The position numbers were made by a program, and so were the translations under genes. A stretch of 64,000 nt of DNA from an uncultured Gemmatimonadales bacterium (GTDB taxonomy: Bacteria > Gemmatimonadota > Gemmatimonadetes > Gemmatimonadales > GWC2-71-9), in NCBI GenBank assembly GCA_963695555.1, contig CAVOGR010000007.1, positions 736,001 to 800,000 on the forward strand, in the 5' to 3' direction. The notes under the pieces were generated by a model. That model was not told where the DNA came from. It did not search any database and worked only from the letters and a program-made list of their open reading frames with translations. Positions 32,357 through 46,933 of the stretch are shown in pieces (positions within the stretch are counted from its first letter, which is position 1; each line of letters begins with the position of its first letter).

Positions 32357-35300
32357 TCAGGGCCGTGGTCGGACGCGCCTGAAACCGGGAAGCAGGGCCG
32401 GCAAGACCACGAGGGCCGCCAGGGTGCCGGCAGCCACGCCGCCGGTCGTAGCCAGCGCAATCGACCCAAAGAGGCTGTCCGACTCGGTCCCGATGGCGAG
32501 CGGGAGCAGGCTGGCCAAGGTGGTCAGGGTGACCAACACGATCATGCCGGCACGATCGCGGCAGGCGGACACGACTTCCTGCTTGGTGAGCCCAGCCCTT
32601 CCGGTTTGCGCGAGCCGCCGACGGCGCTTTTCGAGCGCCGCGTCGATCAACAGGATCGCCTGGTTGACCGCGAGGCCCACCACCAGAATCACCCCGACGG
32701 CGGCCTCACGCGTGAAGGCAGCCTTGGCAATCCAAAAGGCCGCCCCGACTCCACCCAACGCCAACGGCAGGCTCAGGAACACTACGCCCGCCGCCCACAC
32801 CGAATCGAACACCATCGCCACCACGAGAATCACCAGCGTCACGCCCACGCCGAAGACCAGCCACAGCCCCTTACCGCTCTCGTCTTCTTCCCACGCGAAC
32901 ACCTCGTCATCGACCTGGTAGCCGGCAGGCACGCCGATCGATGCCATGAACGCGTCGTGGGTTCTCCGGGCAAGCTTGCTTGGCCCCCGGAAATCGTAGC
33001 TCAAAATCCTGACGTACTGCTGATCTTCCCGGCTGATGTTGCTGAGGGTTTCGCGCTCACCCACGCGCGCCAGGTCGCCGATCCGCACCGGGGCGCTTAC
33101 CGCATTGGGGACCACGGCGGAGCGCAGTTCGTCGAGCGTACGCTCGACAGCGCCCGCGGTCTTGAGTGTGACCGGCAACTCTTCTCCGTCGATCTCGATT
33201 CGTTGACTGCCCGCAGGTCCGCGGACCTCGCGGGCTACCGCCGCGGCCAGTTCGGCGCCGGTGATGCCGTGCCGGGCCAGGGCGTCGCGGTCGGGCTCCA
33301 ACGTCACCGTAAAGGCCTTCTCGCGGAACCAGAAGCTGCCCGCATTGACATCGACGTCCCGTACCCGGCGAATGCGCTCCAAGCGTGCCTTGAGATCATA
33401 GGCCAGGCGCTCGACGCCTGAGAACGAATAGCCGAGAATCTTGATTCGAAAGGACACGCTGCCGCCGCCACCGAATCCCGAGCTGAAGCCGGGTCCCTGA
33501 CCACGAACCGCGACCCGTGCCCCACCGATGAAGACCGCCCGCTGGGTCAGCGCCTCTTCGAGTTGGCGCGGCAAGGCGGTGAGTCCCGCATCCTTCTCGA
33601 ACAGGACCTGCATGCTGGCGCCCCCGCCAAACCCGCGTCGCGTTCCGCCACCGGCGGTGACGACCTGCTCGACGCCCGGCACTCCCACTACGAGGGTTTC
33701 GAATTCCCGCATCCCGCGATCGAGGCTCTCCGGATCCGATCCGCGGGGGAAGCTCAAGAAGACGGACAGCGTGGTCCGTTGTCCAAACCAATCGCCCCAC
33801 GAGGTGCGCGGAACCTTGGTGATGAACCCCCAGGTCACGAGCCCGAGCGCTCCGACAGCTAAACCGAGCGTGACCCAGCGCCACCGAAGCAGTCGAATCA
33901 CCACCCGCCGGTAGAACCGGCTCATCCGTGGCCAGTGCGCCTTCGACGCCCCGTGCCCGGCGCTCAAGGCGGGAATCATGATCACGGCCGAAACAACCGA
34001 ACATCCGAGGGCCAGGGCGAACGCGGCGGCAAAGGGCATGAAGGCAGCGCGGGCATTGCCTTGCAAATAGAGGAACGGGAAGAGCACCACGGCGGTGGTC
34101 ATGGTCGCACCGAGGAGCGCCGGCAGAATCCGGACCCCGACTTCCGTCCGGCCCTCGGTCGTGTCCGGCGCCCGCCGGAGCCGCTCCACCACGACGAGGC
34201 CGTTCTGAACCAGAATCCCAACACCCATCCCCAGCCCGGCGAGGGTAAGGAGGTTGGCGGGGATACCCAGGAGATACAAACCGAGCGCCGTACCGAAGAT
34301 GGCCACCGCCGCGCTGCCGAGCACCAGCAGCACCGACTTGGCATTGCGCAGCGTGACGGCAAGTACCAACGCGACCAGCACAAAGGCGATCGCACCGCGT
34401 CGGCCGAGATCGCGCAGTTGCTTGGCCAGGTCGACGCTTTCGTCCGTGGCGACGGAGAGGCGGAGCCCTTCGGGCAGGGCGGGTTCGAGCTCGTTCATCA
34501 GACGTCGAACCCCCGCCGCGGTCTTGATCGCGTCCGCCCCGGGCAACCGCGAAATGCGCATCGAGACGGCGGGGCGACCGTTGATTCGATAGAAGCTGCC
34601 TCTGGCATCTTCCTCCTGCCGAATCGACGTGATGTCGGACAATTGATAGACCAACCCGCCCGCTCCGCGCACGGGCAATCGGCCGAGATCGTCGAGCGCT
34701 CCGGGCTGATCGCGGAGCACGACGCGTCGTTCCGTCGCGCCGGCCTGGTCCTCACCCAGCGAGCGGACCACCCGCGACTGCCCCAGTACCCGCAAGAGTT
34801 CCGCGGGGCTGATGTCGAGCTGCCGCAGCTGGACCGGGTTGTACGACACCGATACGCCCAAGTCGGCCCCGCCCGATGGCTCGCCGACGGCCACGCCGGG
34901 AATTGCGCTCACCCGGGGAAGGATGCGTTCGCGCGCAATGCGCTCGAGGGCGCCGGGAGTGTAGGGACCGGACAGGGTGTACTCGAGCAGCGGGACTTCG
35001 TCCAGTTCCTCGGGCACGAAGTTGGTGACCGAGGCTGGCGTCGTCCCCGGCGGGAACTCCGGACGCAGCAGCTCGAGGCGCTCGAGAATTCCCAACCGTG
35101 CCATCTGCACGTTTGCGTCGGGCTCGAGCTCGACCTCGAGCGACGCGAAGCCCTCGCGCGATTCGCTCGACGTCTTCTTGACGCCCCGGACTGCTTGGGT
35201 AGCCGCCTCGACGGGGGCGGTGAGATACATTTCGACCAGTTCGGCCGCCGAGCCGGGCCAACCGATGGTAATCTGCAGGCGCGGCAGCTCGACCGTCGTC

Positions 35301-35404
35301 TTGGTGGCAAGCGGTAGCCGCGTGAACGCTACCGCTCCCGCGAGAATAATGGCGACCGCAACGGCCCAGATCACCGCCGGCCGTCGGACAGCCCACCCGA
35401 TCAC
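32357..35404 (-). CDS. RND efflux permease (AcrB family), divergent subunit
   Basis: 1015 aa RND architecture; NLLTLAGL, AMVFDS...LPLALGG, TTLASLLPLA. TM4 reads GILVQNG. Confidence 0.88.
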   Translation of the reverse strand: MIGWAVRRPAVIWAVAVAIILAGAVAFTRLPLATKTTVELPRLQITIGWPGSAAELVEMYLTAPVEAATQAVRGVKKTSSESREGFASLEVELEPDANVQMARLGILERLELLRPEFPPGTTPASVTNFVPEELDEVPLLEYTLSGPYTPGALERIARERILPRVSAIPGVAVGEPSGGADLGVSVSYNPVQLRQLDISPAELLRVLGQSRVVRSLGEDQAGATERRVVLRDQPGALDDLGRLPVRGAGGLVYQLSDITSIRQEEDARGSFYRINGRPAVSMRISRLPGADAIKTAAGVRRLMNELEPALPEGLRLSVATDESVDLAKQLRDLGRRGAIAFVLVALVLAVTLRNAKSVLLVLGSAAVAIFGTALGLYLLGIPANLLTLAGLGMGVGILVQNGLVVVERLRRAPDTTEGRTEVGVRILPALLGATMTTAVVLFPFLYLQGNARAAFMPFAAAFALALGCSVVSAVIMIPALSAGHGASKAHWPRMSRFYRRVVIRLLRWRWVTLGLAVGALGLVTWGFITKVPRTSWGDWFGQRTTLSVFLSFPRGSDPESLDRGMREFETLVVGVPGVEQVVTAGGGTRRGFGGGASMQVLFEKDAGLTALPRQLEEALTQRAVFIGGARVAVRGQGPGFSSGFGGGGSVSFRIKILGYSFSGVERLAYDLKARLERIRRVRDVDVNAGSFWFREKAFTVTLEPDRDALARHGITGAELAAAVAREVRGPAGSQRIEIDGEELPVTLKTAGAVERTLDELRSAVVPNAVSAPVRIGDLARVGERETLSNISREDQQYVRILSYDFRGPSKLARRTHDAFMASIGVPAGYQVDDEVFAWEEDESGKGLWLVFGVGVTLVILVVAMVFDSVWAAGVVFLSLPLALGGVGAAFWIAKAAFTREAAVGVILVVGLAVNQAILLIDAALEKRRRRLAQTGRAGLTKQEVVSACRDRAGMIVLVTLTTLASLLPLAIGTESDSLFGSIALATTGGVAAGTLAALVVLPALLPGFRRVRPRP

Positions 35405-38400
35405 TCCGCCCCTCCGACACCGGCCGGCACCGTCGCGGTTTCTTCACCGGACCGACGCCGACTCGCGGCACCGCCTTTCCACCGCTCCACGACGACGTAC
35501 CCGGCGGGCATTAGAAAGAAGGTCACCACCAGCGCGCTCGCGGCACCGCCGATCACGCTCGCCGCCAGCGGCTGATAGAGCGCGCCACCGCTGCCGAACC
35601 CGAACACCAGCGGGAACACACCCGCGATGGTAGTCAACGAGGTCATGACCACCGGTCGGAGCCGCTGACGCCCACCCAACGCAATGGCCTCTTCCAACGG
35701 GTGCCCCGCTTGGCGGAACCGCTCGATGGCCGCGAGCTTCACCACCGCATCGTTGTCTGCGATGCCGATCATGACGATCAAGCCGATGAGCGACACGGCA
35801 TTGAGGCTTTGTCCGGTGAGCCACAGGGCGATGATGCCGCCGCCTGCGGCAAGCGGAACGGTGAGCATGACGACGAGCGGTGTCGTGAAGGACGCAAACT
35901 CACCGGCTAGCACCAGGAACACCAAGGCCACCGAGAGCACCGCCACCAAGCCGAATTCCGAAATGGTCCGGCGTTGTTCGATGTCGGCGCCGGTGAGTTC
36001 CCACGTGACACCGGGCGGTGCGCCGGCCGCCGTGAGGCGCTTGGCGACCTCCGCCGCGGCGCGAGCCGTGCCGCCGCGCTCGACCCCGGCTTCGACGATC
36101 GACACCGGCCGCTGGTTGACCCGCACCACCTCGATCGGAGCCCGCGTCTCCTTTACCGAAACGAGTTGCCCCACCGGAATGCCGCCCACCTGTGTTGTGA
36201 GCGCCGTGGCCAGATCCTCGTTGGCCGCCCCAGCAAGCCGCACGCGAATCGGCGTCCGCCGGTCGGTTTCCCTGAGTTCCGTGGCCTCGACACCGCCGAG
36301 TCCACCTGCCAACGCATCCGCCACGGTCTCGACGTCGAGGCCGTGCTCCGCAATGCGATCCCGGCGGAATTCGATCTCGACCACCGCTTGGGTTCCGCCG
36401 TAGGCATCGCGCACATCGACGAGAGTGGGAATGCTGTCGAGCACGGCCTCTGCCACGGCGGCCCACGCCTCCGCTTCATCCGGTCTGGCGGCTCCGACTT
36501 CGACCCGCACGATGCGCCCTTCACGACCGATGAGGCTGCCGAATTCCGATTGCCCTGCAAGGTCGATGGCCAACGACCCGTGCGCCAGGTCGGGAACGCG
36601 AGCGCGCAGGCGATCCGCGAAGCGCGCGGCGTCGGTCCCGGCTCGGACGGGAGCGAGGAGTTGGGCCGTGCTCGACGAGCCCGGCAGAGCCCCGGACAAC
36701 ACCTCCTCGTCGGTGGCCTTTCCAATTCGGCTGTAGATCCCGGTCGACCCCGACTCCAGCGCGGCCGTTTCGATGCGCGCCACTTGGCGGGCGGTTTCTT
36801 CGATGGTGGTCCCATCGGGCAGGGTCAGCTCCACCACCAGGACCCCTTCGTCCACCTGAGGCAGGATTTCCCTGGGCAACTGGAGGGCCAACACCACCAT
36901 GAGGAGAAGGCCGGCCCCACTCAACGCGAAGACCCGCCCAGGATGAGCCAGGCTCCAGCGCAGGCCGCGTTCGTACCAGTCGCCAAACCGCCGACCGAAG
37001 GCGTCGAGCGCTTCGCGCCGAGCGCTGGGGCCGGCGGCTTCGGCCCGCGTCCGGGAGGGTGCCTGCCGTGTCCCGCGGCGGCGGCCGGCGAGGATGACAG
37101 GCAGCAATGTCAGGGCGAGCACCAAGGACGCGCCGAGCGCGGTCACGACGCTCAAGGATAAATCCCGGAACAAAGCCGCCGCGAGTCCGCGCACAAACAC
37201 GATGGGACCAAAGACCAGCAGCGTCGTGAGGGTGCCGGCGATCAGTGGACCAGCCACTTCTTCGGTTGCGCGCACGGTGGCGTCGGCCGGCGACAGGCCC
37301 GTGTGCTCGAGTCGGCCGGTAGCCTCGGACACAACGATCGCGTTGTCGACCAGGAGACCGACGCCCAAGGCGAGGCCGCCGAGCGACAAAATATTGATCG
37401 ACACGTTGAGCAGCTGGAGCAGGACCAACGCAACCAACACTGACAGCGGAACCACCAGGCCGATGGCGAGCGAGCTCCGAAGGTGACCCAGGAAGACCAG
37501 GATAACGATCAACGCGAGGGCGCCGCCGAGAAAGATCTCGCGGCCCAGGTTGGCCAGCGCAGCGGTGACGAACTCCGCTTGCGCCGCGACCACCGACATG
37601 GTGATGGCAGGAAATTCTTCCGAGAGCGTCTCGATCGTCCGGTAGATGCCCTTGGTCACGGTTACCGTGTTGGCGCCCGCGTCCTTATACACCACCAGCC
37701 CGACGGCCGGCGACCCGTCGAGCCGCGTCATGGTTTCCGGGTCGCCGCTCGCGAGCGTGATCGTGGCCAGATCGCGCAATCGGGTGCTTCCGCCGGGCGG
37801 ACCGACCGGCGTCTGGCCCACCTCGTCAACATCTTGCAGCTCCGTCAGCGCCCGGACCGAGAACCGGAACTGACCGCGGCGGATGGTCCCGCCCTGGGCC
37901 GTCGCGTTGGCATTCCGAACGGCGGTGGCAATATCGGAAGGCGAGAGGCCCAGTGCGCGCATCCGATTCGGATCAACATCGATCCGGATCTCGTCCTTGG
38001 GCGCGCCGACCACGGCCACGCTGGCCACACCCTGCAGCTGCTCGAGTCGCCGGGCGTGGACTTCTTCGCTGGTGCGCGCGATGGCGCGGAGGGTACCCGG
38101 TCCCGTAAGTCCGATGACGGCGATGGGCCGCTCACCAGGGTCGCTGGTCAGGAGCGTGGGGCGCGTGGCCCGCTCCGGCAGCTGCGACCTGACATTGTCG
38201 AGGCGCTCGCGCACGTTGAGCACGGTCGTCGCCATGTCCGTGCCCCACGCGAACCGTGCCGTCGTCGTCAACTGCCCGTTCCGGCTCACCGAACGCAGCT
38301 CGACCAGCCCCGGCGTTGCCGCGATGGCCTCTTCGATCGGCTCGGCGACGAACCGCGAGACCTCGGTGGCCGCCGCGCTTTCGTAATCGGTTCGAATGGT

Positions 38401-38535
38401 GAGAAGCGGGAGGGTCACGTCCGGCAAGAGCGACACGGGAAGCCGGCTGAGCGAAACGCTCCCGACCAAGACGAGGGCCAGCACGGCCGCGACCGTCGTG
38501 ACAGGCCGCCGGACCGCCGCGTGTGTCAGCGACAT
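35401..38535 (-). CDS. RND efflux permease (AcrB family)
   Basis: LPVSLLPD, NILSLGGLALGVGLLVDNAIVV, RLRPVVMTSLTT. Confidence 0.92.
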   Translation of the reverse strand: MSLTHAAVRRPVTTVAAVLALVLVGSVSLSRLPVSLLPDVTLPLLTIRTDYESAAATEVSRFVAEPIEEAIAATPGLVELRSVSRNGQLTTTARFAWGTDMATTVLNVRERLDNVRSQLPERATRPTLLTSDPGERPIAVIGLTGPGTLRAIARTSEEVHARRLEQLQGVASVAVVGAPKDEIRIDVDPNRMRALGLSPSDIATAVRNANATAQGGTIRRGQFRFSVRALTELQDVDEVGQTPVGPPGGSTRLRDLATITLASGDPETMTRLDGSPAVGLVVYKDAGANTVTVTKGIYRTIETLSEEFPAITMSVVAAQAEFVTAALANLGREIFLGGALALIVILVFLGHLRSSLAIGLVVPLSVLVALVLLQLLNVSINILSLGGLALGVGLLVDNAIVVSEATGRLEHTGLSPADATVRATEEVAGPLIAGTLTTLLVFGPIVFVRGLAAALFRDLSLSVVTALGASLVLALTLLPVILAGRRRGTRQAPSRTRAEAAGPSARREALDAFGRRFGDWYERGLRWSLAHPGRVFALSGAGLLLMVVLALQLPREILPQVDEGVLVVELTLPDGTTIEETARQVARIETAALESGSTGIYSRIGKATDEEVLSGALPGSSSTAQLLAPVRAGTDAARFADRLRARVPDLAHGSLAIDLAGQSEFGSLIGREGRIVRVEVGAARPDEAEAWAAVAEAVLDSIPTLVDVRDAYGGTQAVVEIEFRRDRIAEHGLDVETVADALAGGLGGVEATELRETDRRTPIRVRLAGAANEDLATALTTQVGGIPVGQLVSVKETRAPIEVVRVNQRPVSIVEAGVERGGTARAAAEVAKRLTAAGAPPGVTWELTGADIEQRRTISEFGLVAVLSVALVFLVLAGEFASFTTPLVVMLTVPLAAGGGIIALWLTGQSLNAVSLIGLIVMIGIADNDAVVKLAAIERFRQAGHPLEEAIALGGRQRLRPVVMTSLTTIAGVFPLVFGFGSGGALYQPLAASVIGGAASALVVTFFLMPAGYVVVERWKGGAASRRRSGEETATVPAGVGGAE

Positions 38536-38573
38536 GGCAAACCAGATCTACGGCCGGCCGGCACGGCTCCCGC

Positions 38574-39737
38574 TCATGGCGTGGTGGGCCGCTCGGCGAC
38601 CGTCTCGAGCCGGACCGGCGCATCGTGGGTAAGGGTGAGATGACCCTCGATGAGCACGGTGTCGCCAACCGCAACCGGGATCAGCCCCGACACCGAGTCG
38701 GGTTCCACCGCGGTGTCGACGCCGTTGGTACGGCCCGGGGTGATGTAGACCCACTGGGCGCGCCCGTCCTTCACCACGAAGACCAACGGGCGGCCGTCCC
38801 GCTCGATCACCGCACGGGCCGGCACCAGAATCCGGTCGGCCAGCCGGGTGGCCTCCAAACGCACGTCGGCGTACATGCCCGGCCGCAGGGTTCCGTCTCC
38901 CCGGATCTGGACCAGTGCACGGCCGGTGCGGGTGACGCTGTCGACGACCGGCAGGACGGTCGCGATGCGTCCGACGACCGGGCGATCCGGTGTGGCCGCG
39001 GTGGTGATCACGGCCTGGCCGCCCGGCTTGATCAGCGGAAGATCGTGCTCGAGCACCGACGCCTCGAGCCGGAGGTTCGTCATGTCCACCACGACGGCGA
39101 CTTCCTGGCTTACACTGAGCCGCTCACCCACGCTGACCTGCACACGATCCACCACGCCGGCAAACGGGGCGCGGATGGTAGCCCGTTCACGGTCGAGCTT
39201 GGCTTGCTCGTATCGGGCCCGCGCGGCTTTGAGGCCGCTGCGGGTTTCCGCGTTCGCGCGCCGCTCGGGCGTCGGTGCCTGCCCCGATACGATCGAATCC
39301 GGCAGCAGGTTGTCGACGTAGCGGAGCTGCGCCTCGTCGAGTGCGGCCTCGGACTCTTCGAGGGCCAGGTCGAAGGGCCGCGGATCCAGCTGGACCAGGG
39401 CTTGCCCGGCCGCGACACGGCGGCCCGGCCGCACCAGCACTTGCTGGACCGTGCCGGTCGCTTCGGCGCGCAAGGTGGCTGAGGCCTCCGAGCGCACTTG
39501 CCCGGTGGTGGTCACCGACAGGAGCAGGTCGCCTTTCCGGACAGTCTGACCGACCACCGGCAGCGACAGGGTGCTCGACGCTTCGGCGCCCTCATTGTCG
39601 TTGTCTCCCTCCGCCGCCTTGGCCTTGCATCCTGCCGCAAGCGCCGTCATCGCCATGATCAGCAGGAGGCCGGAGTAGCTCCTCAGGTTCGCCACGTGCA
39701 TAGAGTTCTCCAGGCCAGGCGCGTCCACTTCTTTCAT
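38574..39737 (-). CDS. RND periplasmic adaptor (membrane fusion lipoprotein)
   Basis: Lipobox AAGC; IRAPFAGVV, LRPGMYADV, VPARAVIERDGR. The start may be the ATG at 39701. Confidence 0.9.
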   Translation of the reverse strand: MKEVDAPGLENSMHVANLRSYSGLLLIMAMTALAAGCKAKAAEGDNDNEGAEASSTLSLPVVGQTVRKGDLLLSVTTTGQVRSEASATLRAEATGTVQQVLVRPGRRVAAGQALVQLDPRPFDLALEESEAALDEAQLRYVDNLLPDSIVSGQAPTPERRANAETRSGLKAARARYEQAKLDRERATIRAPFAGVVDRVQVSVGERLSVSQEVAVVVDMTNLRLEASVLEHDLPLIKPGGQAVITTAATPDRPVVGRIATVLPVVDSVTRTGRALVQIRGDGTLRPGMYADVRLEATRLADRILVPARAVIERDGRPLVFVVKDGRAQWVYITPGRTNGVDTAVEPDSVSGLIPVAVGDTVLIEGHLTLTHDAPVRLETVAERPTTP

Positions 39738-41041
39738 GAGAGCGGCCGTCCGATAATGGCTTCGATTTGCGCTTTGGCGCGCAGGAAGTCGACGCCCGCG
39801 CTTACCGCCGCTTCCTCAGCGCGTGTCAGCGATTCTTGTGACGTCAGCACTTCGACGTACGTGATCGAGCCCAAGCGGTAGCGTTCGAGCTGAACCCGAA
39901 GATCCGCCTGTGCCGCTTCGAGACTCAGCTTGGTCACGTCGATCCGGACCCGCGCCGTGGTCAGCGCTGCGAGCTGGGCCGTGAGGCTGGCCTCGACCTG
40001 GCGGCGATCGTCGGCCAGCGTGGCCGCCACGTTATCGAATAGTACCGAGCTTTGATCGAGCTGCCGCTCGCGATTGAATCGATCGAACAGAGTCCAGCTG
40101 AGGCCCACGTTGATGTTCGAGGTTCGCTGAAGGTCGTAGTCGTCCAACTGGCTGCCGGAAAGCTGCGTATTGGCGCTCAAGCTCAAGGAAGGCCAATACC
40201 CCGACTTGGCGGCGGTGACTTGGGCCCGCGCCGACCGCATGTTCGCATCAGACGCCAGGATCCGGGGCGATCGCTCGATGGCTTCCTGCAGCAACACATC
40301 AGGGTCCAGGTCCATGTCGGTGGTATACAGCGACGGGTCGTCCACCGCCGAGATGCGCCCCTGTTCGCCTATCAGACGTGCCAGATTGGCCTCTGCCGTA
40401 GCCAGTTGACGCTCGGCTTCGAGCAGCTGCACACGGGCCTCGCCGAGCGTCACCACCGCACGGAGCGAGTCCGACACCGTCGCGGCCCCGGTGCTGAGTT
40501 TGGCCACCGCGATCTTGAATTGCTCTTCGGCTCGCGTGATGCCTGCCTCCCGAGCCCGGACCAACTGCTGCCCCGCGAGCGCATTGAAGAACTCGAGGCT
40601 GGTGGCCAGCGCCACCTGCGCTTCTTGATCGGCGAGCGAGGCCTCGCTCGCCTCGCGATCCGCCTTGGCGGACCGAATGGTTGCCTCGCGGCGGAAACCA
40701 TCGAATAGAATCAGGCTCGAATTGATGCCGAAGTTGACGCTCCTATTGGAGTTGAGGCCGGTGAGGAGCTCGCCCGTTTGGGGGTCGAGCCGCGATTGGG
40801 CCTGTGGGAAGAACGACTGGCCGGCGCCCGCGCTCCCGGACAACGACGGGAGGTAGGCGCTGTACGCCGACCGGACATCAGAGCCGGCTACCGCGAGCGC
40901 ACCGCGAGCCTGAACCACGGCCGGCTGTACCCGCCGGGCCATGGCAATGGCCTCGGCCAAGGTCACGGCCCGCTGTTGGGCCCCAAGCGGCGCGACCAGG
41001 AGAAGCCAGCACAGCCCTGCCGCGAAATGGATTGGTTTCAC
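39734..41041 (-). CDS. TolC-family outer-membrane efflux protein
   Basis: GGAGG then GTG at 41041; signal peptide; TLAEAIAMA, YLPSL, LFDGF, ERYRLG. Confidence 0.9.
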   Translation of the reverse strand: MKPIHFAAGLCWLLLVAPLGAQQRAVTLAEAIAMARRVQPAVVQARGALAVAGSDVRSAYSAYLPSLSGSAGAGQSFFPQAQSRLDPQTGELLTGLNSNRSVNFGINSSLILFDGFRREATIRSAKADREASEASLADQEAQVALATSLEFFNALAGQQLVRAREAGITRAEEQFKIAVAKLSTGAATVSDSLRAVVTLGEARVQLLEAERQLATAEANLARLIGEQGRISAVDDPSLYTTDMDLDPDVLLQEAIERSPRILASDANMRSARAQVTAAKSGYWPSLSLSANTQLSGSQLDDYDLQRTSNINVGLSWTLFDRFNRERQLDQSSVLFDNVAATLADDRRQVEASLTAQLAALTTARVRIDVTKLSLEAAQADLRVQLERYRLGSITYVEVLTSQESLTRAEEAAVSAGVDFLRAKAQIEAIIGRPLS

Positions 41042-41250
41042 GACGCTCGTCACCTCCGGTCTCCATATCCCATTACCACAACGATGCATTGGGACGCCGT
41101 GGCGTCGCTCCTGAGCGCAAACGACCTCACCTGTGGCCGATAGACGCCTGCGGCGGCCCAGCAATCGCGTTCAAGTTACTGTGATATGAGTGAACCGGAT
41201 ACCGGTCCGAGCGGACGCCGGCAGGGAAACGACCGGGGGTTCAGCACCTG

Positions 41251-42036
41251 CTAAAGCAGCGGCGATTCGCTCGGCTCGATCTCGAAGAAGGTCTGTTTCA
41301 GTCGATCCCAGGCCGCCGCATCAACGTGGGTGTGCAGCTCACTCACCAGCCTACCCCCGTCGGCCAGCACCGCGATCTCCTCCTCACCGAGCAAGGTACT
41401 GATCAGCCGGTCCACCTCACGCTGGAACCAGGCCTGCGCCCGATCCCCGCGTAACAGGCGCCGGCGCTCGCGACGGAGTCCCTTCCCCTCGAGCTTCACT
41501 ACCCACCCCTCACCGTAGGGGTCCTCGTTCAACAACGTCGGCCGCCGGCCGAGGGACGCATTGTGACCCACCACCGTTCCCGACACCGGGGCACGCAGGT
41601 CGACGCTGCGTTCACCTTGACGCAACCGGAAGAGCGACTGACCACGGCTGACCTTGGTGCCCTTGGCGGGCAGAATTACCGTGTCGACCGGGCCCAAGGT
41701 GGCCTGCACCAAATCGTCCGCGCCCACTACCGCCTCGCCATGTCTGACCCGGGTCCACGTATGGCCGGAAGCGATGGCGACATTGGCGCCGAGTCGCAGT
41801 CCCTTATGGAACAGCATGGGTTCGAACTGCGCACCGAACCAGGTGCGGAAGGAGGGGCTCACGGCGTAGGACACAATTCCGCCTATTAACGCGACCCCGA
41901 AGACTGCGACCACCCCCGCCCGCACCATCAGCGCCGCAAGGCCCAACAGCGGCAATCCGACGACGAAGAGCGCCATCACGACTATGACGGCTCCGATTGT
42001 GAGCGCCGTTCGATACCATCGGTTTTCGGTTCGCAT
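41251..42036 (-). CDS. Membrane-anchored glycine cleavage H-like protein, lipoyl Lys absent
   Basis: Two N-terminal transmembrane helices; GcvH fold HTW..VGADD..LG...LP..G...RAPVSG.V...N....P.LLNEDPYGEGW. The ESVK loop is replaced by RQGE. C-terminal LADGG extension. Confidence 0.8.
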   Translation of the reverse strand: MRTENRWYRTALTIGAVIVVMALFVVGLPLLGLAALMVRAGVVAVFGVALIGGIVSYAVSPSFRTWFGAQFEPMLFHKGLRLGANVAIASGHTWTRVRHGEAVVGADDLVQATLGPVDTVILPAKGTKVSRGQSLFRLRQGERSVDLRAPVSGTVVGHNASLGRRPTLLNEDPYGEGWVVKLEGKGLRRERRRLLRGDRAQAWFQREVDRLISTLLGEEEIAVLADGGRLVSELHTHVDAAAWDRLKQTFFEIEPSESPLL

Positions 42037-42079
42037 GGTGCAACCTCCGAGCCTGTGCTCCAATCCCCAGCTCTCTCAA

Positions 42080-42095
42080 TGCATGCCCCGCACCA
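42080..42095 (-). promoter_or_regulatory. sigma54 (-24/-12) promoter for the membrane GcvH-like gene
   Basis: Minus strand TGGTGCGGGGCATGCA = GG-N10-GC, 44 nt before the ATG. Confidence 0.6.
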
Positions 42096-42192
42096 CACCG
42101 GCCTGGCCTTGGGCGCGCGCTGGAAGTTCATAAATTGCAATAGTTTTCGCCGTTTCATCTGGAGCTGTGTAACCACCGGACGTCATGAACCC

Positions 42193-42230
42193 TGACGAAT
42201 TCGTCAACATGACTGTTGAGAAGATCAACA
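42193..42230. promoter_or_regulatory. Tandem enhancer (UAS) sites for a sigma54 activator
   Basis: TGACGAATTCGTCAACA (42193) and TGTTGAGAAGATCAACA (42214): 17-bp TGT-N11-ACA-like dyads, 21 bp apart. Confidence 0.65.
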
Positions 42231-42235
42231 TGATG

Positions 42236-42985
42236 TCAGGTCGTCATTTCACGAAGGAGTTGCAGGTACCGGTCACCGCCGAGTAATTGGCGCATGTCGG
42301 TCAGGACTTGGCCACCGTCGGGCAGACATGAGCCGACCTCAGCCGTGTCGGCCAGGAGGTGGAGGGCCGCACGGCGTCGGAACCCGCGGAGGTCGAACTC
42401 CGCCTGTTTCCGAGCGTCCTCCGCACTCAGCAGCCCATTGGGAGACGTACCATCAACTGGGTCGAGTTCGGTGATCCAACCTTCCCCATAGGGATCGGCG
42501 CGCACCGCCCGCGGGTCTCCGGCCAGCACTTCGTTCCATCGCATGACACAACAGCCGAATGGAGCGCCGATTGGCAGCGTGCCCTGAGCAAGTTCGATCT
42601 CGAAGAGGAGATCGCCACCGTTCAAGCGGCGCGGGATGCCTCCGCAGTGGACTGCCGCGCAGTCGCCGATGAGATCGGAGACAAAGCCGTCGAGGCCTAT
42701 TCTCAGGGTTGCCCCGTCGGTCGGACTGGCCTGGATCCAGAGGTGGCCGGTAGAGTATCGCCGATCCTCTGGGAACTGAGCGGCGTGTCGACTGGGAAGG
42801 GCGGTCAGGTGGTCGGACCGGGGAGCGAGTGGCGCGTTGCCTCCACGGAGGGCGGCATCGAGCGCGCAGCCATCGCAATCGAACTCGCGGTCACAGAGCC
42901 GGTAGGCCACCAACCCCGCGCTCATCCACACGCAGGGCAGAGCGCCTGCCGGAAGGATCCGGTGCTGCTCTCGGCTCATCACCAT
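42236..42985 (-). CDS. Cys-rich glycine cleavage H-like protein, lipoyl Lys absent
   Basis: AAGGGAG RBS; N-terminal C-x12-C-x5-C-x2-C (CVWMSAGLVAYRLCDREFDCDGC); GcvH fold YSTGHLW..IGLD...AP...DPYGEGW with ELAQ in place of ESVK; C-terminal LPDGG. Confidence 0.8.
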   Translation of the reverse strand: MVMSREQHRILPAGALPCVWMSAGLVAYRLCDREFDCDGCALDAALRGGNAPLAPRSDHLTALPSRHAAQFPEDRRYSTGHLWIQASPTDGATLRIGLDGFVSDLIGDCAAVHCGGIPRRLNGGDLLFEIELAQGTLPIGAPFGCCVMRWNEVLAGDPRAVRADPYGEGWITELDPVDGTSPNGLLSAEDARKQAEFDLRGFRRRAALHLLADTAEVGSCLPDGGQVLTDMRQLLGGDRYLQLLREMTT

Positions 42986-43073
42986 TGGCCGCTCTCCCTT
43001 GCCGAATCGCGGCCGGGAGGCGACCCGACGTCGTTGCGAAGAAGACTCGCCTCCCAACCTCACACCACCGAAT

Positions 43074-43089
43074 AGCAAGTCGGGAGCCA
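43074..43089 (-). promoter_or_regulatory. sigma54 (-24/-12) promoter for the Cys-rich GcvH-like gene
   Basis: Minus strand TGGCTCCCGACTTGCT, close to the consensus TGGCAC-N5-TTGCW. Confidence 0.75.
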
Positions 43090-43161
43090 GCAGACGGGGG
43101 GGCCGAGAAGGCCGCAGATTGGGCCTAACCCCAGAGGCGATGCGACCGCGGCTTCCCGTGT

Positions 43162-43198
43162 CGTTGAATTCATCAACGGTTCATTGAAAATTCCTACA
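43162..43198. promoter_or_regulatory. Second pair of tandem enhancer (UAS) sites
   Basis: CGTTGAATTCATCAACG (43162) and CATTGAAAATTCCTACA (43182), 20 bp apart; same GTTGA-N5-TCAAC core as the site at 42214. Confidence 0.6.
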
Positions 43199-43258
43199 TC
43201 GCTCGATACCGTTCAGATGCCTGCATATCCGCGTCCATGACGGTACGCGGGAGCACTC

Positions 43259-44965
43259 ATGACCCCGACGCTCAGGGCGCGTCGATCGCTCGGGATACGC
43301 CTTCTCCTTCCGCTGGCCCTCACGGTCGGCGTCGTCTTCGCCGTTCATTCGCTGGTCAACTATCGCTCCACGCGGGCGGACCTCGTGGGGTTCCTCCGGT
43401 CGGCGGCGGACAACGACAGCGACCTCATTCGTCGCGCTACCCATGACGGCATGCTGCTCAACCGGCTCGATGATGTCCAAGAGCTCGTCACTCGCTTGGC
43501 CGAGGGTCCCGGTGTGGCGGCAATTCGGGTCTACGACAAACACGGTGTGATCGTGCTTAGCGCCCATCGCGAGGAGATCGGCCGCTACATCGCGCTCGAT
43601 TCAGAGACCTGTGTGAGCTGTCACCAGCAAGAGCATACCTCGGACGTGGGCGAACTCGAGCGCAGCGGGCTGGCGCGTATGCCTGAAGGGGTCGAAGTGC
43701 TCCGCCACTTGTCGGTGATCCCCAATGAGCCGGCCTGTGCGACAGCCGGCTGTCACGATCCCCCGGGCCAGAAGCGGATCCTGGGGGTCCTCGACGTGGA
43801 GATGTCGATGCTGCCGGTCGAGTCCACTCTTCGGGCGGCCCAGCAACGCATCATCGCCACGACCTTGGCGCTGATTCTCATCATCGGCGTCGTCTCGGTG
43901 GTGTTCTTCAATCAAGTGATCCACCGACCGGTGGCGGCGCTGCACGAGGGCACACGGCGCATTGCGGCGGGCGACTTGGAAACCCGGATTTCCGTACGCG
44001 GCCAACATGAGCTATCCGAGCTGGCCCACGCCTTCAACCGCATGTCGGAGGATCTGAGTACGGCGCGGCAGGAGCTCAAGGGATGGTCGCAGAAACTCGA
44101 AGCCAAGGTCCAGGAGAAGACCAGTGAGCTCCAACGGGCTCAGCGCCAGGTACTGCACATGGAGAAGATGGCGTCGCTCGGCAAGCTCTCGGCCACGGTC
44201 GCCCACGAGCTCAACAATCCCATCAGCGGGATGCTCAACTACAGCCGCTTGGTGGAGCGCGGCCTCGAGGAGCAGCCGCTCGATCCGGACGCGCGCGAGG
44301 AACTCGGACGGTACCTCCATTTTCTCCAGAAGGAGTGCAGCCGGTGCGGCAAGATCGTCACCAACCTGTTGCTCTTCGCGCGGCGGACAGGAGCCGACAT
44401 GGAGCCGATCGATCTCAACGAGATCGTGGAGCGGAGCCTGATGTTGGTGCAACACCATCTCAAGGTCAGCAACATCGAGCTCAGCACCCGGCCCCTCACG
44501 GGCAATGCCATGGTCGTCGCCGACGGCGGGCAGCTCCAGCAGGCCTTGGTGGCCCTGATGGTCAACGCGGTCGAGGCCATGGGCGGGGCGAGGAGCGGCG
44601 GCGGCGACGTCTTGAGCGTGCGGCTGGACGCCTCTGACGGTGAGGTCACACTCGAGATCGCCGATACCGGCCCCGGTATTTCGTCGGAGGTCCTGCCCCA
44701 CATCTTCGAGCCGTTCTTCTCAACCAAGGATCAGGAGAGCGGTGTCGGCCTGGGCCTCGCGGTAGTCTACGGCATCGTCCAGCGCCACGGTGGAACCATC
44801 GATGTGGATTCCGAGCCGGGCATGGGAACCAAATTCACCCTGCGGTTACCGCGCCAGCGGCCACCGGAGGCAAGCGGCTTCTCTGCCGCCAACCCGGAAT
44901 TCGAACTGCACCCGGCCGGTGGCGCAACGCGGCCCGAAGGAGACGACCCCCATGAGCACGCATGA
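43259..44965 (+). CDS. Membrane sensor histidine kinase with periplasmic c-type haem motifs and HAMP (NtrB-like)
   Basis: Two transmembrane helices flank CVSCH and CATAGCH; HAMP; EKMASLG..VAHELNNP; NAVEA, DTGPGI, IFEPFFSTK, GVGLGL. Confidence 0.93.
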   Translation: MTPTLRARRSLGIRLLLPLALTVGVVFAVHSLVNYRSTRADLVGFLRSAADNDSDLIRRATHDGMLLNRLDDVQELVTRLAEGPGVAAIRVYDKHGVIVLSAHREEIGRYIALDSETCVSCHQQEHTSDVGELERSGLARMPEGVEVLRHLSVIPNEPACATAGCHDPPGQKRILGVLDVEMSMLPVESTLRAAQQRIIATTLALILIIGVVSVVFFNQVIHRPVAALHEGTRRIAAGDLETRISVRGQHELSELAHAFNRMSEDLSTARQELKGWSQKLEAKVQEKTSELQRAQRQVLHMEKMASLGKLSATVAHELNNPISGMLNYSRLVERGLEEQPLDPDAREELGRYLHFLQKECSRCGKIVTNLLLFARRTGADMEPIDLNEIVERSLMLVQHHLKVSNIELSTRPLTGNAMVVADGGQLQQALVALMVNAVEAMGGARSGGGDVLSVRLDASDGEVTLEIADTGPGISSEVLPHIFEPFFSTKDQESGVGLGLAVVYGIVQRHGGTIDVDSEPGMGTKFTLRLPRQRPPEASGFSAANPEFELHPAGGATRPEGDDPHEHA

Positions 44966-46319
44966 GGCCAACATCCTGGTGGTGGACGACGAATTCGCCG
45001 TCCGGGACTCGCTTTACAATTGGTTCCGCAAAGACGGTTACCATGTCCACGCGGCCGAGAATGCCACCGAGGCGCTGCGCGCCCTCCAAGACCAGGCGTT
45101 CGACGTCATTCTGCTCGACATCAAGATGCCCGGCATGGACGGGATGGAGCTCCAGTCACGGATCCATACGATCGATCCGGAGATCGCCGTCATCATGATC
45201 ACCGCGTTCGGATCGGTCGAGACCGCCGTACAGGCCCTCAAACAAGGCGCCTTCGACTACGTCACGAAACCGATCGACCCCGACGAGTTGAGTCACTTGG
45301 TCCACCGAGCACTCGAGCAGCGGCGACTCCAAAAGGAGAACGTGCAGCTGCGGGAGACCATCGACGAGATCGGGGCCGCCGACACGATCGTGGGCGAGAG
45401 TCCTGCCATCCTCAAGGTGCTCGAGTTGATCCGCCACGTCGCCAAGACCGAAGCGACGGTCCTCATTCGAGGTGAGAGCGGTACGGGGAAGGAATTGATC
45501 GCCCGGGCCATCCACGCGAACAGCGCCCGGCGCTATTTCCCGATCGTGCCGGTCAACTGCGGCGCCGTGCCTAACGAGCTGCTCGAGAGCGAGTTGTTCG
45601 GGCACGAGAAGGGAGCCTTTACCGGGGCGCAGCATCGGCGCAAAGGCCGTATCGAAATGGCGGACGGCGGGACGCTGTTCCTGGACGAGGTCGGAGCCAT
45701 CAACCCGAAGATGCAGGTCGATCTCCTCCGGACGCTGGAGACCAAGGAATTCACCCGGCTCGGCGGCTCGAAATCCATCAAGGTGGACTTCCGGATCATT
45801 TGCGCCACCAACGAAGACTTGGAGGTGGCGGTCGAGGAGGGGCGGTTCCGCGAGGACTTTTACTATCGCATCAACGTCTTCACTATCGAGGCTCCGCCGC
45901 TTCGGAGCCGGCCCTCCGACATACCCCTATTGGCCGAGCACATCGTGAAACGGCTCGCGAGGCAGATGGACAAGCGAATCACCGAGATCCACCCCGACGC
46001 GATGCAGCTCCTGATGGACTATGCGTGGCCCGGGAATGTGCGGGAACTCATTAACGCAATCGAGCGCGCCATGGTCGTGGGGACCCCGCCGACCATCCAA
46101 CCAGAGGATCTCCCGGTCTGGGGAAGGCGATCGGTGAATGCATTCTCCGGCGAATCGCTCGCTGACGTGGAGAAGGATCACATCGCGTCCGTGCTCGAGC
46201 ACACGGGATGGAACATCACGCGTGCCGCAGAAATTCTCCGGGTCGATCGCGTGACCGTCTACAACAAGATCAAGAAATACGACCTCCGGCAGCCGGCGAC
46301 CCGGGGCGGTAAGAAATGA
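44952..46319 (+). CDS. sigma54-dependent response regulator (NtrC/AtoC/ZraR family)
   Basis: REC domain (VVDDE, LLDIKMP), GESGTGKE, GAFTGA, LFLDE, WPGNVREL, Fis-type HTH. Start at ATG 44952. Confidence 0.95.
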   Translation: MSTHEANILVVDDEFAVRDSLYNWFRKDGYHVHAAENATEALRALQDQAFDVILLDIKMPGMDGMELQSRIHTIDPEIAVIMITAFGSVETAVQALKQGAFDYVTKPIDPDELSHLVHRALEQRRLQKENVQLRETIDEIGAADTIVGESPAILKVLELIRHVAKTEATVLIRGESGTGKELIARAIHANSARRYFPIVPVNCGAVPNELLESELFGHEKGAFTGAQHRRKGRIEMADGGTLFLDEVGAINPKMQVDLLRTLETKEFTRLGGSKSIKVDFRIICATNEDLEVAVEEGRFREDFYYRINVFTIEAPPLRSRPSDIPLLAEHIVKRLARQMDKRITEIHPDAMQLLMDYAWPGNVRELINAIERAMVVGTPPTIQPEDLPVWGRRSVNAFSGESLADVEKDHIASVLEHTGWNITRAAEILRVDRVTVYNKIKKYDLRQPATRGGKK

Positions 46320-46393
46320 CTGCGCGTTCCGTAGGAAGAGCGGGCCGGGCCGATCCCGGTGGCACCGCCGACATGGCTTCATAGGGCACCGCG

Positions 46394-46933
46394 GTGCCGG
46401 TGCTCCACGTCGTCCCGTTCTATTGCGGCACGGCCACCGACTTGATCGATGGGTTGGAGGCGCGTCTGGCGCGGGTGTTCGGCGTCCGGGTGGAGCACCA
46501 TCCGCCGTCGTTCGAGCCGGAAGTGGCCTACGATGCCTCACGGGGCCAATACAACTCGCGGATCCTGCTTGCCCAGCTGCTCCGTCAGGTACCCGCCGAC
46601 GACTCACGGATCCTCGGCGTGACCGCGCTGGATCTGTTCATCCCGGTGCTGACCTATGTCTTCGGCGAGGCCCAGGTGAACGGCAAGGCGGCCGTCGTCT
46701 CATCACATCGACTCGACAATGCCCTATACGGCTTGCCCGCGTCCCAGGAGCTCCTATTCGAGCGGCTCTGCAAAGAAGCGATCCACGAGTTGGGCCACAC
46801 TTTCAACCTGGTGCATTGCCACAATAGCGAGTGCGTGATGACGAGCTCGATGCAGATCGACGGCGTCGACCTCAAGTCCGACCGGTTCTGCGGTCGTTGC
46901 AAAGCCGCGCTGCGGCACAACGGGGTGTGCTGA
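46394..46933 (+). CDS. Archaemetzincin-family Zn metalloprotease (peptidase M54)
   Basis: AYD..RGQY, DLFIP.LTYVFGEA, KEAIHELGHTFNLVHC...CVM (Met-turn), FCGRC. Confidence 0.88.
   Translation: MPVLHVVPFYCGTATDLIDGLEARLARVFGVRVEHHPPSFEPEVAYDASRGQYNSRILLAQLLRQVPADDSRILGVTALDLFIPVLTYVFGEAQVNGKAAVVSSHRLDNALYGLPASQELLFERLCKEAIHELGHTFNLVHCHNSECVMTSSMQIDGVDLKSDRFCGRCKAALRHNGVC

Follow-up and report, generated by a model that had tools for sequence, protein, structure and literature searches.

Haem kinase, sigma-54 activator and lysine-less H-protein folds: the predicted control half of a split eight-gene island in a Gemmatimonadales genome

Membrane redox complexes under sigma-54 control are known. 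In Desulfovibrio vulgaris, the sigma-54 activator DVU3142 is predicted to control the membrane electron-transfer complex Ohc via conserved sites (PMC4641369), and further components with counterparts here include the Hmc complex of Desulfovibrio (HmcB/HmcC/HmcD) and HybA/HybB of Escherichia coli, the Geobacter sensors GSU0935 and GSU0582 (PDB 3b42 and 3b47), the archaemetzincins (M54, NF033823), and the glycine cleavage H protein, GcvH (PF01597, TIGR00527; PDB 1onl and 3a7l). Here, we analysed a 64,000-nucleotide stretch (hereafter the window) from an uncultured Gemmatimonadales bacterium (assembly GCA_963695555.1, contig CAVOGR010000007.1, positions 736,001 to 800,000), in which five genes combine such components: a membrane histidine kinase with haem-c motifs, an NtrC-type activator and an archaemetzincin on the plus strand, and two genes for H-protein-fold (H-fold) proteins, H1 and H2, on the minus strand (Table 1). 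An earlier sequence-only reading had proposed this gene set, and indeed all five open reading frames (ORFs) of positions 41251-46933 are present and intact, the Pfam domains agree with the earlier labels, and the GAFTGA motif of the activator is unbroken. The claim that the unit is self-contained did not survive, because the same enhancer precedes a distal hybA-hybB-gcvH-like operon with a third H-fold gene, H3, in the same genome (G000, 3.57 Mb, with contigs C1, C2 and C7). The complex concerned differs from Ohc, and the available text on DVU3142 mentions neither H-fold proteins nor a protease, with the word 'glycine' occurring 0 times (PMC4641369).

Gene order across genomes indicates a widespread island of eight genes, split here, with the five window genes as its control half. 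In same-class relatives, 14/14 fetched loci carried all eight genes in one block, in the order H, hybA, hybB, H3, H2-like, kinase, activator and protease; these loci are the fetched part of the 17 H3-positive class genomes other than G000 and G023, and one first gene is cut by the contig end. The H1 gene lies directly 5' of hybA in the unsplit relatives. Among 32 loci seeded by H2 (several contigs being short, and two loci coming from one genome), the haem kinase was found in 27, the activator in 27, the protease in 23 and all three in 22, which bears out the co-occurrence that the sequence-only reading had proposed as a check; hybA and hybB were present together in 23, and everything in 17. 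Nine of the 32 loci were missing hybAB, and for four of these nine the module was found elsewhere in the genome, each time behind enhancer sites. The split island was observed in G000, G023, G304, G305 and the planctomycete G302, the last being one of those four, and enhancer sites precede the displaced hybA-hybB-H3 operon in every split genome.

The enhancer consists of palindromic YGTTGA-N5-TCAACR sites in tandem. As claimed earlier, each window H-fold gene has its own -24/-12 promoter with a matching enhancer pair, and both sites and both pairs were located, against a genomic -24/-12 motif density of 0.036 per kb of strand (~0.006 expected per 170 nt). The motif derived from the window recurs upstream of the distal operon, and tandem sites 20-23 bp apart were also found at the matching promoters of loci from Acidobacteriota, Planctomycetota, Deltaproteobacteria, Ignavibacteriaceae and Caldithrix. 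A -24/-12 site (at most 3 mismatches) followed the enhancer in 21/24 first-gene regions and 11/15 H2 regions. When the 3.57 Mb were scanned with an enhancer matrix of 62 sites from 22 non-Gemmatimonadales loci, the top four single sites were two distal and two window sites (23.5-21.0 bits; next, 19.0), and the top three pairs were those of H1, of H2/kinase and of the distal operon (37.2, 36.1 and 28.6 bits, respectively; best unrelated pair, 19.5), although the window ranks are partly circular, since the training sites were selected for resembling those of the window. The distal sites had no part in defining or training the motif. The locus thus shows the features of an NtrC-type system, namely a REC-AAA+-HTH protein with GAFTGA, rpoN in the genome and a tandem palindromic enhancer upstream of -24/-12 sites, and the activator very probably controls H1, H2 and the distal operon as one regulon via the shared enhancer, as judged from these sites. 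An AT-rich tract (42125-42150) was noted between the H1 enhancer and the H1 promoter, presumably at the place expected for an IHF-type bending site. Enhancer palindromes aside, the repeat finder returned chance-level repeats only.

Table 1. Coordinates of the window genes, their predicted control sites and the distal operon (window positions unless a contig is named).
Feature	Position	Strand	Details
H1	41251-42036	-	261 aa; Pfam GCV_H over cut-off
Sigma-54 -24/-12 site for H1	42080-42095	-	motif search
Enhancer pair, H1 side	42193-42230		sites at 42193/42214, 21 bp spacing; 37.2 bits, top pair of genome
H2	42236-42985	-	249 aa; Pfam GCV_H over cut-off; predicted soluble
Sigma-54 -24/-12 site for H2	43074-43089	-	motif search
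Enhancer pair between H2 and kinase	43162-43198		sites at 43162/43182, 20 bp spacing; 36.1 bits, second pair of genome
Membrane histidine kinase	43259-44965	+	single-Cache-like periplasmic domain, then HAMP, HisKA, HATPase (Pfam)
NtrC-type activator	44952-46319	+	REC, Sigma54_activat with GAFTGA, HTH_8 (Fis HTH)
Archaemetzincin (Peptidase_M54)	46394-46933	+	NF033823 160.2 bits, cut-off 145
Distal hybA-hybB-H3 operon	G000 C7:551.3-554.5 kb		order Fe-S protein, NrfD-type protein, H3

The distal operon keeps the order of Hmc, with HmcB, HmcC and HmcD as the best matches of its products. The first gene encodes an Fe-S protein with a Tat signal and a tail anchor, whose best match is HmcB, then HybA, and the second an NrfD-type membrane protein, whose best match is HmcC, then HybB; the HybA and HybB matches, too, score under their cut-offs. 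H3 (C7:553.7-554.5 kb), the third lysine-less H-fold gene of the genome and the last of the operon, lies ~223 kb from the window genes. The operon differs from Hmc in several respects: the matches to HmcB, HmcC and HmcD all stay under their cut-offs (279 vs 420, 408 vs 550 and 20.8 vs 34 bits, respectively); ORF inspection of the operon revealed no HmcA, HmcE or HmcF, and contig C7 has no ORF with at least three CxxCH; the HmcD-like peptide is fused to the H-fold domain; and Hmc expression is under rrf1/rrf2, as described in a preprint (10.1101/2023.11.02.564894), and not under the present kinase/activator pair.

In G000, the distal hybA/hmcB-like gene (L001 11586-12470; C7:551.6-552.5 kb) is frameshifted just before its C-terminal membrane anchor. 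This frameshift, together with the patchy presence of the island genes (H2 in 2/301 phylum genomes at E<=1e-20, an H3 orthologue in 19/301 sampled genomes of the window's class), would fit a decaying or freshly moved five-gene fragment whose distal link is a relic. However, the frameshift is absent in G023 and G304 agrees over the 241 residues tested, none of the five window ORFs is broken, and the distal enhancer and promoter sites are kept in G023, G304, G305 and G302 while the flanks diverge, making such a relic very improbable. The hybA frameshift is probably an assembly error; in G023, the gene that follows the hybA-like one has a separate indel at its start, which also looks like an assembly error.

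Among other loci, an Fe-S subunit subtype without the Tat signal peptide, its C-terminal anchor kept, was seen at L033 7999-8766. A small c7/c3-like cytochrome gene lies between or after the two H-fold genes in L049, L059, L064 and L079 (and L060), and the islands of L012, L032 and L063 come with 8- to 14-haem cytochromes. Elsewhere in G000, C1:566-604 kb holds a multihaem cytochrome cluster (up to 21 CxxCH per ORF) with a Rieske/cytochrome b-like pair, ccm genes and a frameshifted [NiFe] hydrogenase large subunit; neither the hydrogenase locus nor the cytochrome cluster is among the top enhancer pairs.

G000 has four GCV_H matches, namely the true gcvH, H1, H2 and H3. The true gcvH adjoins gcvP and a lipoate-ligase-like gene on C1, consistent with the earlier statement that the window holds no gcvP, whereas H1 and H2 are not beside gcvP. 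They share the fold of GcvH, as an H2 model matched to 1onl by Foldseek illustrates (E 1.4e-11, target-normalised TM 0.92, rmsd 1.7), but differ in lacking the lipoyl Lys and in their added termini: H1 has two predicted N-terminal membrane helices, and H2 a four-Cys N-terminal motif (C18, C31, C37, C40), each followed by the lysine-less GcvH fold and a C-terminal helical tail with LxDGG. Their TIGR00527 scores (65.1 and 47 bits, respectively) fall under the cut-off of 115.85. In the alignment to solved H-proteins, the lipoyl Lys column holds Glu in H1 and Gln in H2, in agreement with the non-lipoylated character proposed earlier, and Lys occupies this position in 0/48, 1/80 and 0/119 rows of three homologue sets, which include the query proteins and exclude two tandem proteins of >330 aa. 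The LxDGG tail is common to all paralogues, being invariant in the 48-row alignment and kept in 77/80 and 119/119 rows of the other sets. Lipoylation at a neighbouring residue was considered and rejected: Lys at P-7 was found in 32/119 H3 homologues and 5/48 mixed rows, but the residue is Arg in H1 and Gly in H2. The alignments thus indicate that the H-fold of the window proteins has lost its lipoyl role.

A quick H-fold tree, with its deep forks unresolved, gave separate clades for H1 (97), H3 (97) and H2 (88), and left the receiver fusions described below without a place. Two H3-type proteins, P0088 and P0089, contain two tandem H-fold domains with a degenerate DGG motif, which hints at domain pairing. 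A search for longer fusions returned one match among 8000 scored candidates, P0200 (549 aa), in which a large N-terminal domain and one membrane helix precede a lysine-less H-fold with a DGG tail at the C-terminus; the N-terminal part had no Pfam or PDB match, and a suspected likeness to a solute-binding protein was unsupported. By eye, the first membrane helix of H1 (41860-42036) resembles the C-terminal membrane segment of a receiver protein on C2 (L003 7799-7950).

The fusions and neighbours of the H-fold point to what it may do. The N-termini of H3-type proteins matched HmcD, a hydrophobic peptide of the Hmc complex, in 14/14 and 3/3 tests (best, 33.3 bits; cut-off, 34), in contrast to 0/17 control hydrophobic segments. 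In an Acidobacteriota sample, 78/301 genomes gave an H-fold profile match, of which 21, as counted from the listing, were shorter and without the tail. Six of these 21 genomes were fetched, and each showed hybA-hybB-haem kinase and then a single H-fold gene; these six loci of the receiver-fusion group yielded no sigma-54 activator, protease or enhancer match. Pfam found both a receiver and GCV_H in 4/4 proteins scanned (three from the short-match group, one from L063), giving a sister architecture of transmembrane (TM)-receiver-GcvH. In such a fusion, the domain arrangement places the H-fold at the output of the response regulator that belongs to the kinase. Because of these fusions, the HmcD-like anchor of H3 and the single membrane-anchored H genes beside hybAB (L047, L048, L052, L061, L065 and L076), the quinone module, downstream of the kinase, is the likely place of action of the H-fold. 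The idea of a repurposed H-fold held insofar as the lipoyl role is lost, while its proposed place as feedback on the kinase gave way to one more probably downstream. A complex prediction of the HybB/HmcC-like protein with H3 scored 0.00 in two runs in which the controls did not fold, and is evidence neither way.

The four-Cys motif, kept in 69/79 H2 homologues, raised the possibility that the H-fold proteins replace HmcE/HmcF as redox or metal/sulfur carriers in the cytoplasm, with H2 holding an Fe-S cluster or metal on its four Cys and handing on electrons or sulfur at the module's inner face; the real Hmc complex does have a cytoplasmic Fe-S subunit, as the available part of the preprint states (10.1101/2023.11.02.564894). 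Nevertheless, the homologue alignments of H1 and H3 contain no conserved Cys or Lys, the Cys-type gene is missing altogether from many loci, and the receiver fusion suits regulation better than carriage. We thus regard carriers as quite unlikely.

Several further observations, besides the partly circular ranks and the sub-threshold Hmc scores, weigh against a regulon that feeds a quinone module with H-fold subunits. The -24/-12 site of the distal operon, with 4 mismatches, is a weak one, although G023 shares it, and the distal hybA is the frameshifted gene mentioned above. Enhancer scores of at least 17 bits were found in 3/15 loci without an activator nearby, and none in 8/20 loci with one. 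ORF inspection of the distal operon revealed no cytochrome or catalytic subunit gene, and such a gene is also absent from many of the island loci examined. Moreover, H1 and H2 remain with the regulators, not with the module, in all five split genomes, and no hybB-like match was obtained, in a search run without a positive control, from G301 and G303, two genomes of unstated completeness that have the H-fold genes together with the kinase, activator and protease. Because no split observed in the island parts H1 and H2 from the regulators, the idea that they modulate the kinase or activator by feedback stays live; they might relay the state of the quinone module, in which case signalling would be the main task of the island and the module would serve as a co-sensor. 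In most H2-seeded loci, H2 neighbours the gene of the kinase or of the activator, which would suit such a role, as would the genomes without a hybB-like match, the loci without a cytochrome or catalytic gene, and the invariant LxDGG loop, whose confidence in the H2 model is below that of its flanks, as a partner-binding loop might show. Feedback nevertheless appears rather unlikely, since the receiver-GcvH fusions make the H-fold a kinase output, H3 has an HmcD-like anchor and moves with the module, and the same haem-Cache kinase family occurs at C2:406-408 kb without an H-fold gene. On balance, sequence comparison leads us to lean slightly towards the H-fold proteins being accessory subunits of a quinone-linked membrane module.

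The input to this control half would come from the kinase, whose sensor is predicted to be a single-Cache-like haem-c domain. In profile searches, the first matches of the sensor were 3b42 (GSU0935, E 0.001) and 3b47 (GSU0582, E 0.033), associated with sCache_heme, the class for such domains in the available text of PMC12889525. PF21563 was matched by 11/26 members of the sensor family at E<=0.1, the atlas and Pfam results agree weakly with this assignment, and the model topology fits a single Cache fold between two membrane helices, with Cache-family scores under the cut-off. Periplasmic haem-c motifs, as named in the earlier reading, are present, but only one of the two is a canonical CxxCH (118-122), the other being CX4CH (160-166). 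In contrast to sCache_heme, it is the CX4CH, not a CXXCH, that stands at the family's motif position, where it aligns onto the haem motif of 3b42/3b47, with the CxxCH as a second motif; CxxCH is kept in 27/28 and CX4CH in 28/28 family rows, two of which are from the same genome. Because of this second CxxCH beside the family-position CX4CH, the kinase is probably a two-haem sensor, and sensor versions with a second haem motif are mentioned in the available part of PMC3831638. ccmF is present in G000. One signalling-type sCache_heme member is reported to bind NO and not O2 (PMC12889525). The kinase input would likely be NO/CO or the periplasmic redox state. On C2:402-408 kb (L003 6044-12301), a paralogue of the kinase has both haem motifs as well; its neighbours encode a sigma-54 activator, which is frameshifted, a receiver protein with a membrane hairpin at its end, and a fusion of a nine-haem cytochrome c with a cytochrome b-like domain. 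This locus contains no H-fold gene.

The start of the activator gene overlaps the stop of the kinase gene. In the archaemetzincin, which scores over the family cut-off, the zinc-ligand His residues (three), the catalytic Glu and the four Cys are all kept, but the Gly of HEXXHXXGXXH is Asn here and in close relatives, and the spacer is 16 instead of 17, compared with the M54 consensus HEXXHXXGXXH-CX4CXM-CXXC (available part of PMC3427221). Across 35 Acidobacteriota loci (a non-random sample picked for long contigs, six of them purposely from the receiver-fusion group), the archaemetzincin was present in 20/20 loci with a sigma-54 activator and 0/15 without, though all 35 have an H-fold gene. 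Gene presence thus assigns the protease to the activator arm and not to the H-fold genes, contrary to the earlier suggestion that it turns over the H-fold proteins; its substrate would be, at a guess, the activator or the kinase. No description of such a tight archaemetzincin/sigma-54 activator link was found in open-access titles and abstracts.

As for the surroundings, an RND efflux operon (outer-membrane factor, membrane-fusion protein and two AcrB-like genes) occupies window positions 32357-41164, directly downstream of H1, and did not appear to be a conserved island component. In metatranscriptome contigs of run X1, coverage is even at ~10 over the region and its flanks, the pattern that DNA would give, so that expression is not shown.

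In the best explanation, to which we give a probability of roughly 0.55, the window genes are the regulatory half of a split island whose H-fold proteins are accessory subunits on a quinone module. The predicted haem-c sensor kinase would detect NO/CO or the periplasmic redox state and, as its family suggests, phosphorylate the sigma-54 activator, which would switch on H1, H2 and the distal operon of hybA/hmcB-like, hybB/hmcC-like and H3 genes via the shared enhancer. H1, H2 and H3 might then dock on the cytoplasmic side and tune the quinone-linked membrane module, while the protease may reset the activator arm; both haem attachment to the sensor and quinone chemistry of the NrfD-type subunit are presumed from family knowledge. 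A bolder version is tentative and on the doubtful side: the lysine-less H-fold with its LxDGG tail could be a dedicated switch subunit of quinone-linked respiratory complexes that exists in two interchangeable wirings, direct phosphorylation through the receiver fusion or induction through the cross-phylum sigma-54 enhancer, in a closed redox loop of module, adaptors and two-haem kinase, with an archaemetzincin reset at the activator arm.

The island is a real, conserved system that has apparently gone undescribed. As the sequence-only reading had supposed, no functional description was found in the open-access literature, for the five genes or for the eight-gene combination; subscription papers and supplements lay outside this search, and the bioRxiv tables of ferredoxin-HybB modules could list members. 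The available part of that preprint treats stand-alone tail-anchored Fe-S plus HybB-like modules and Hmc, with 'glycine cleavage' occurring 0 times (10.1101/2023.11.02.564894). For the parts list of lipoate-free H-fold subunits, a probable two-haem Cache kinase and an activator-linked archaemetzincin, we found no source in print, and the most unusual part is the repurposed H-protein fold. The split genomes are a natural experiment in which the enhancer travels with the displaced operon, and they provide an exact DNA site, three target promoters and the cognate activator, testable in E. coli. Many 'glycine cleavage system H protein' annotations in these phyla say nothing on glycine metabolism, and docking of the H-fold on the NrfD-type subunit, if real, would mean that many uncultured lineages regulate respiration in a new way.

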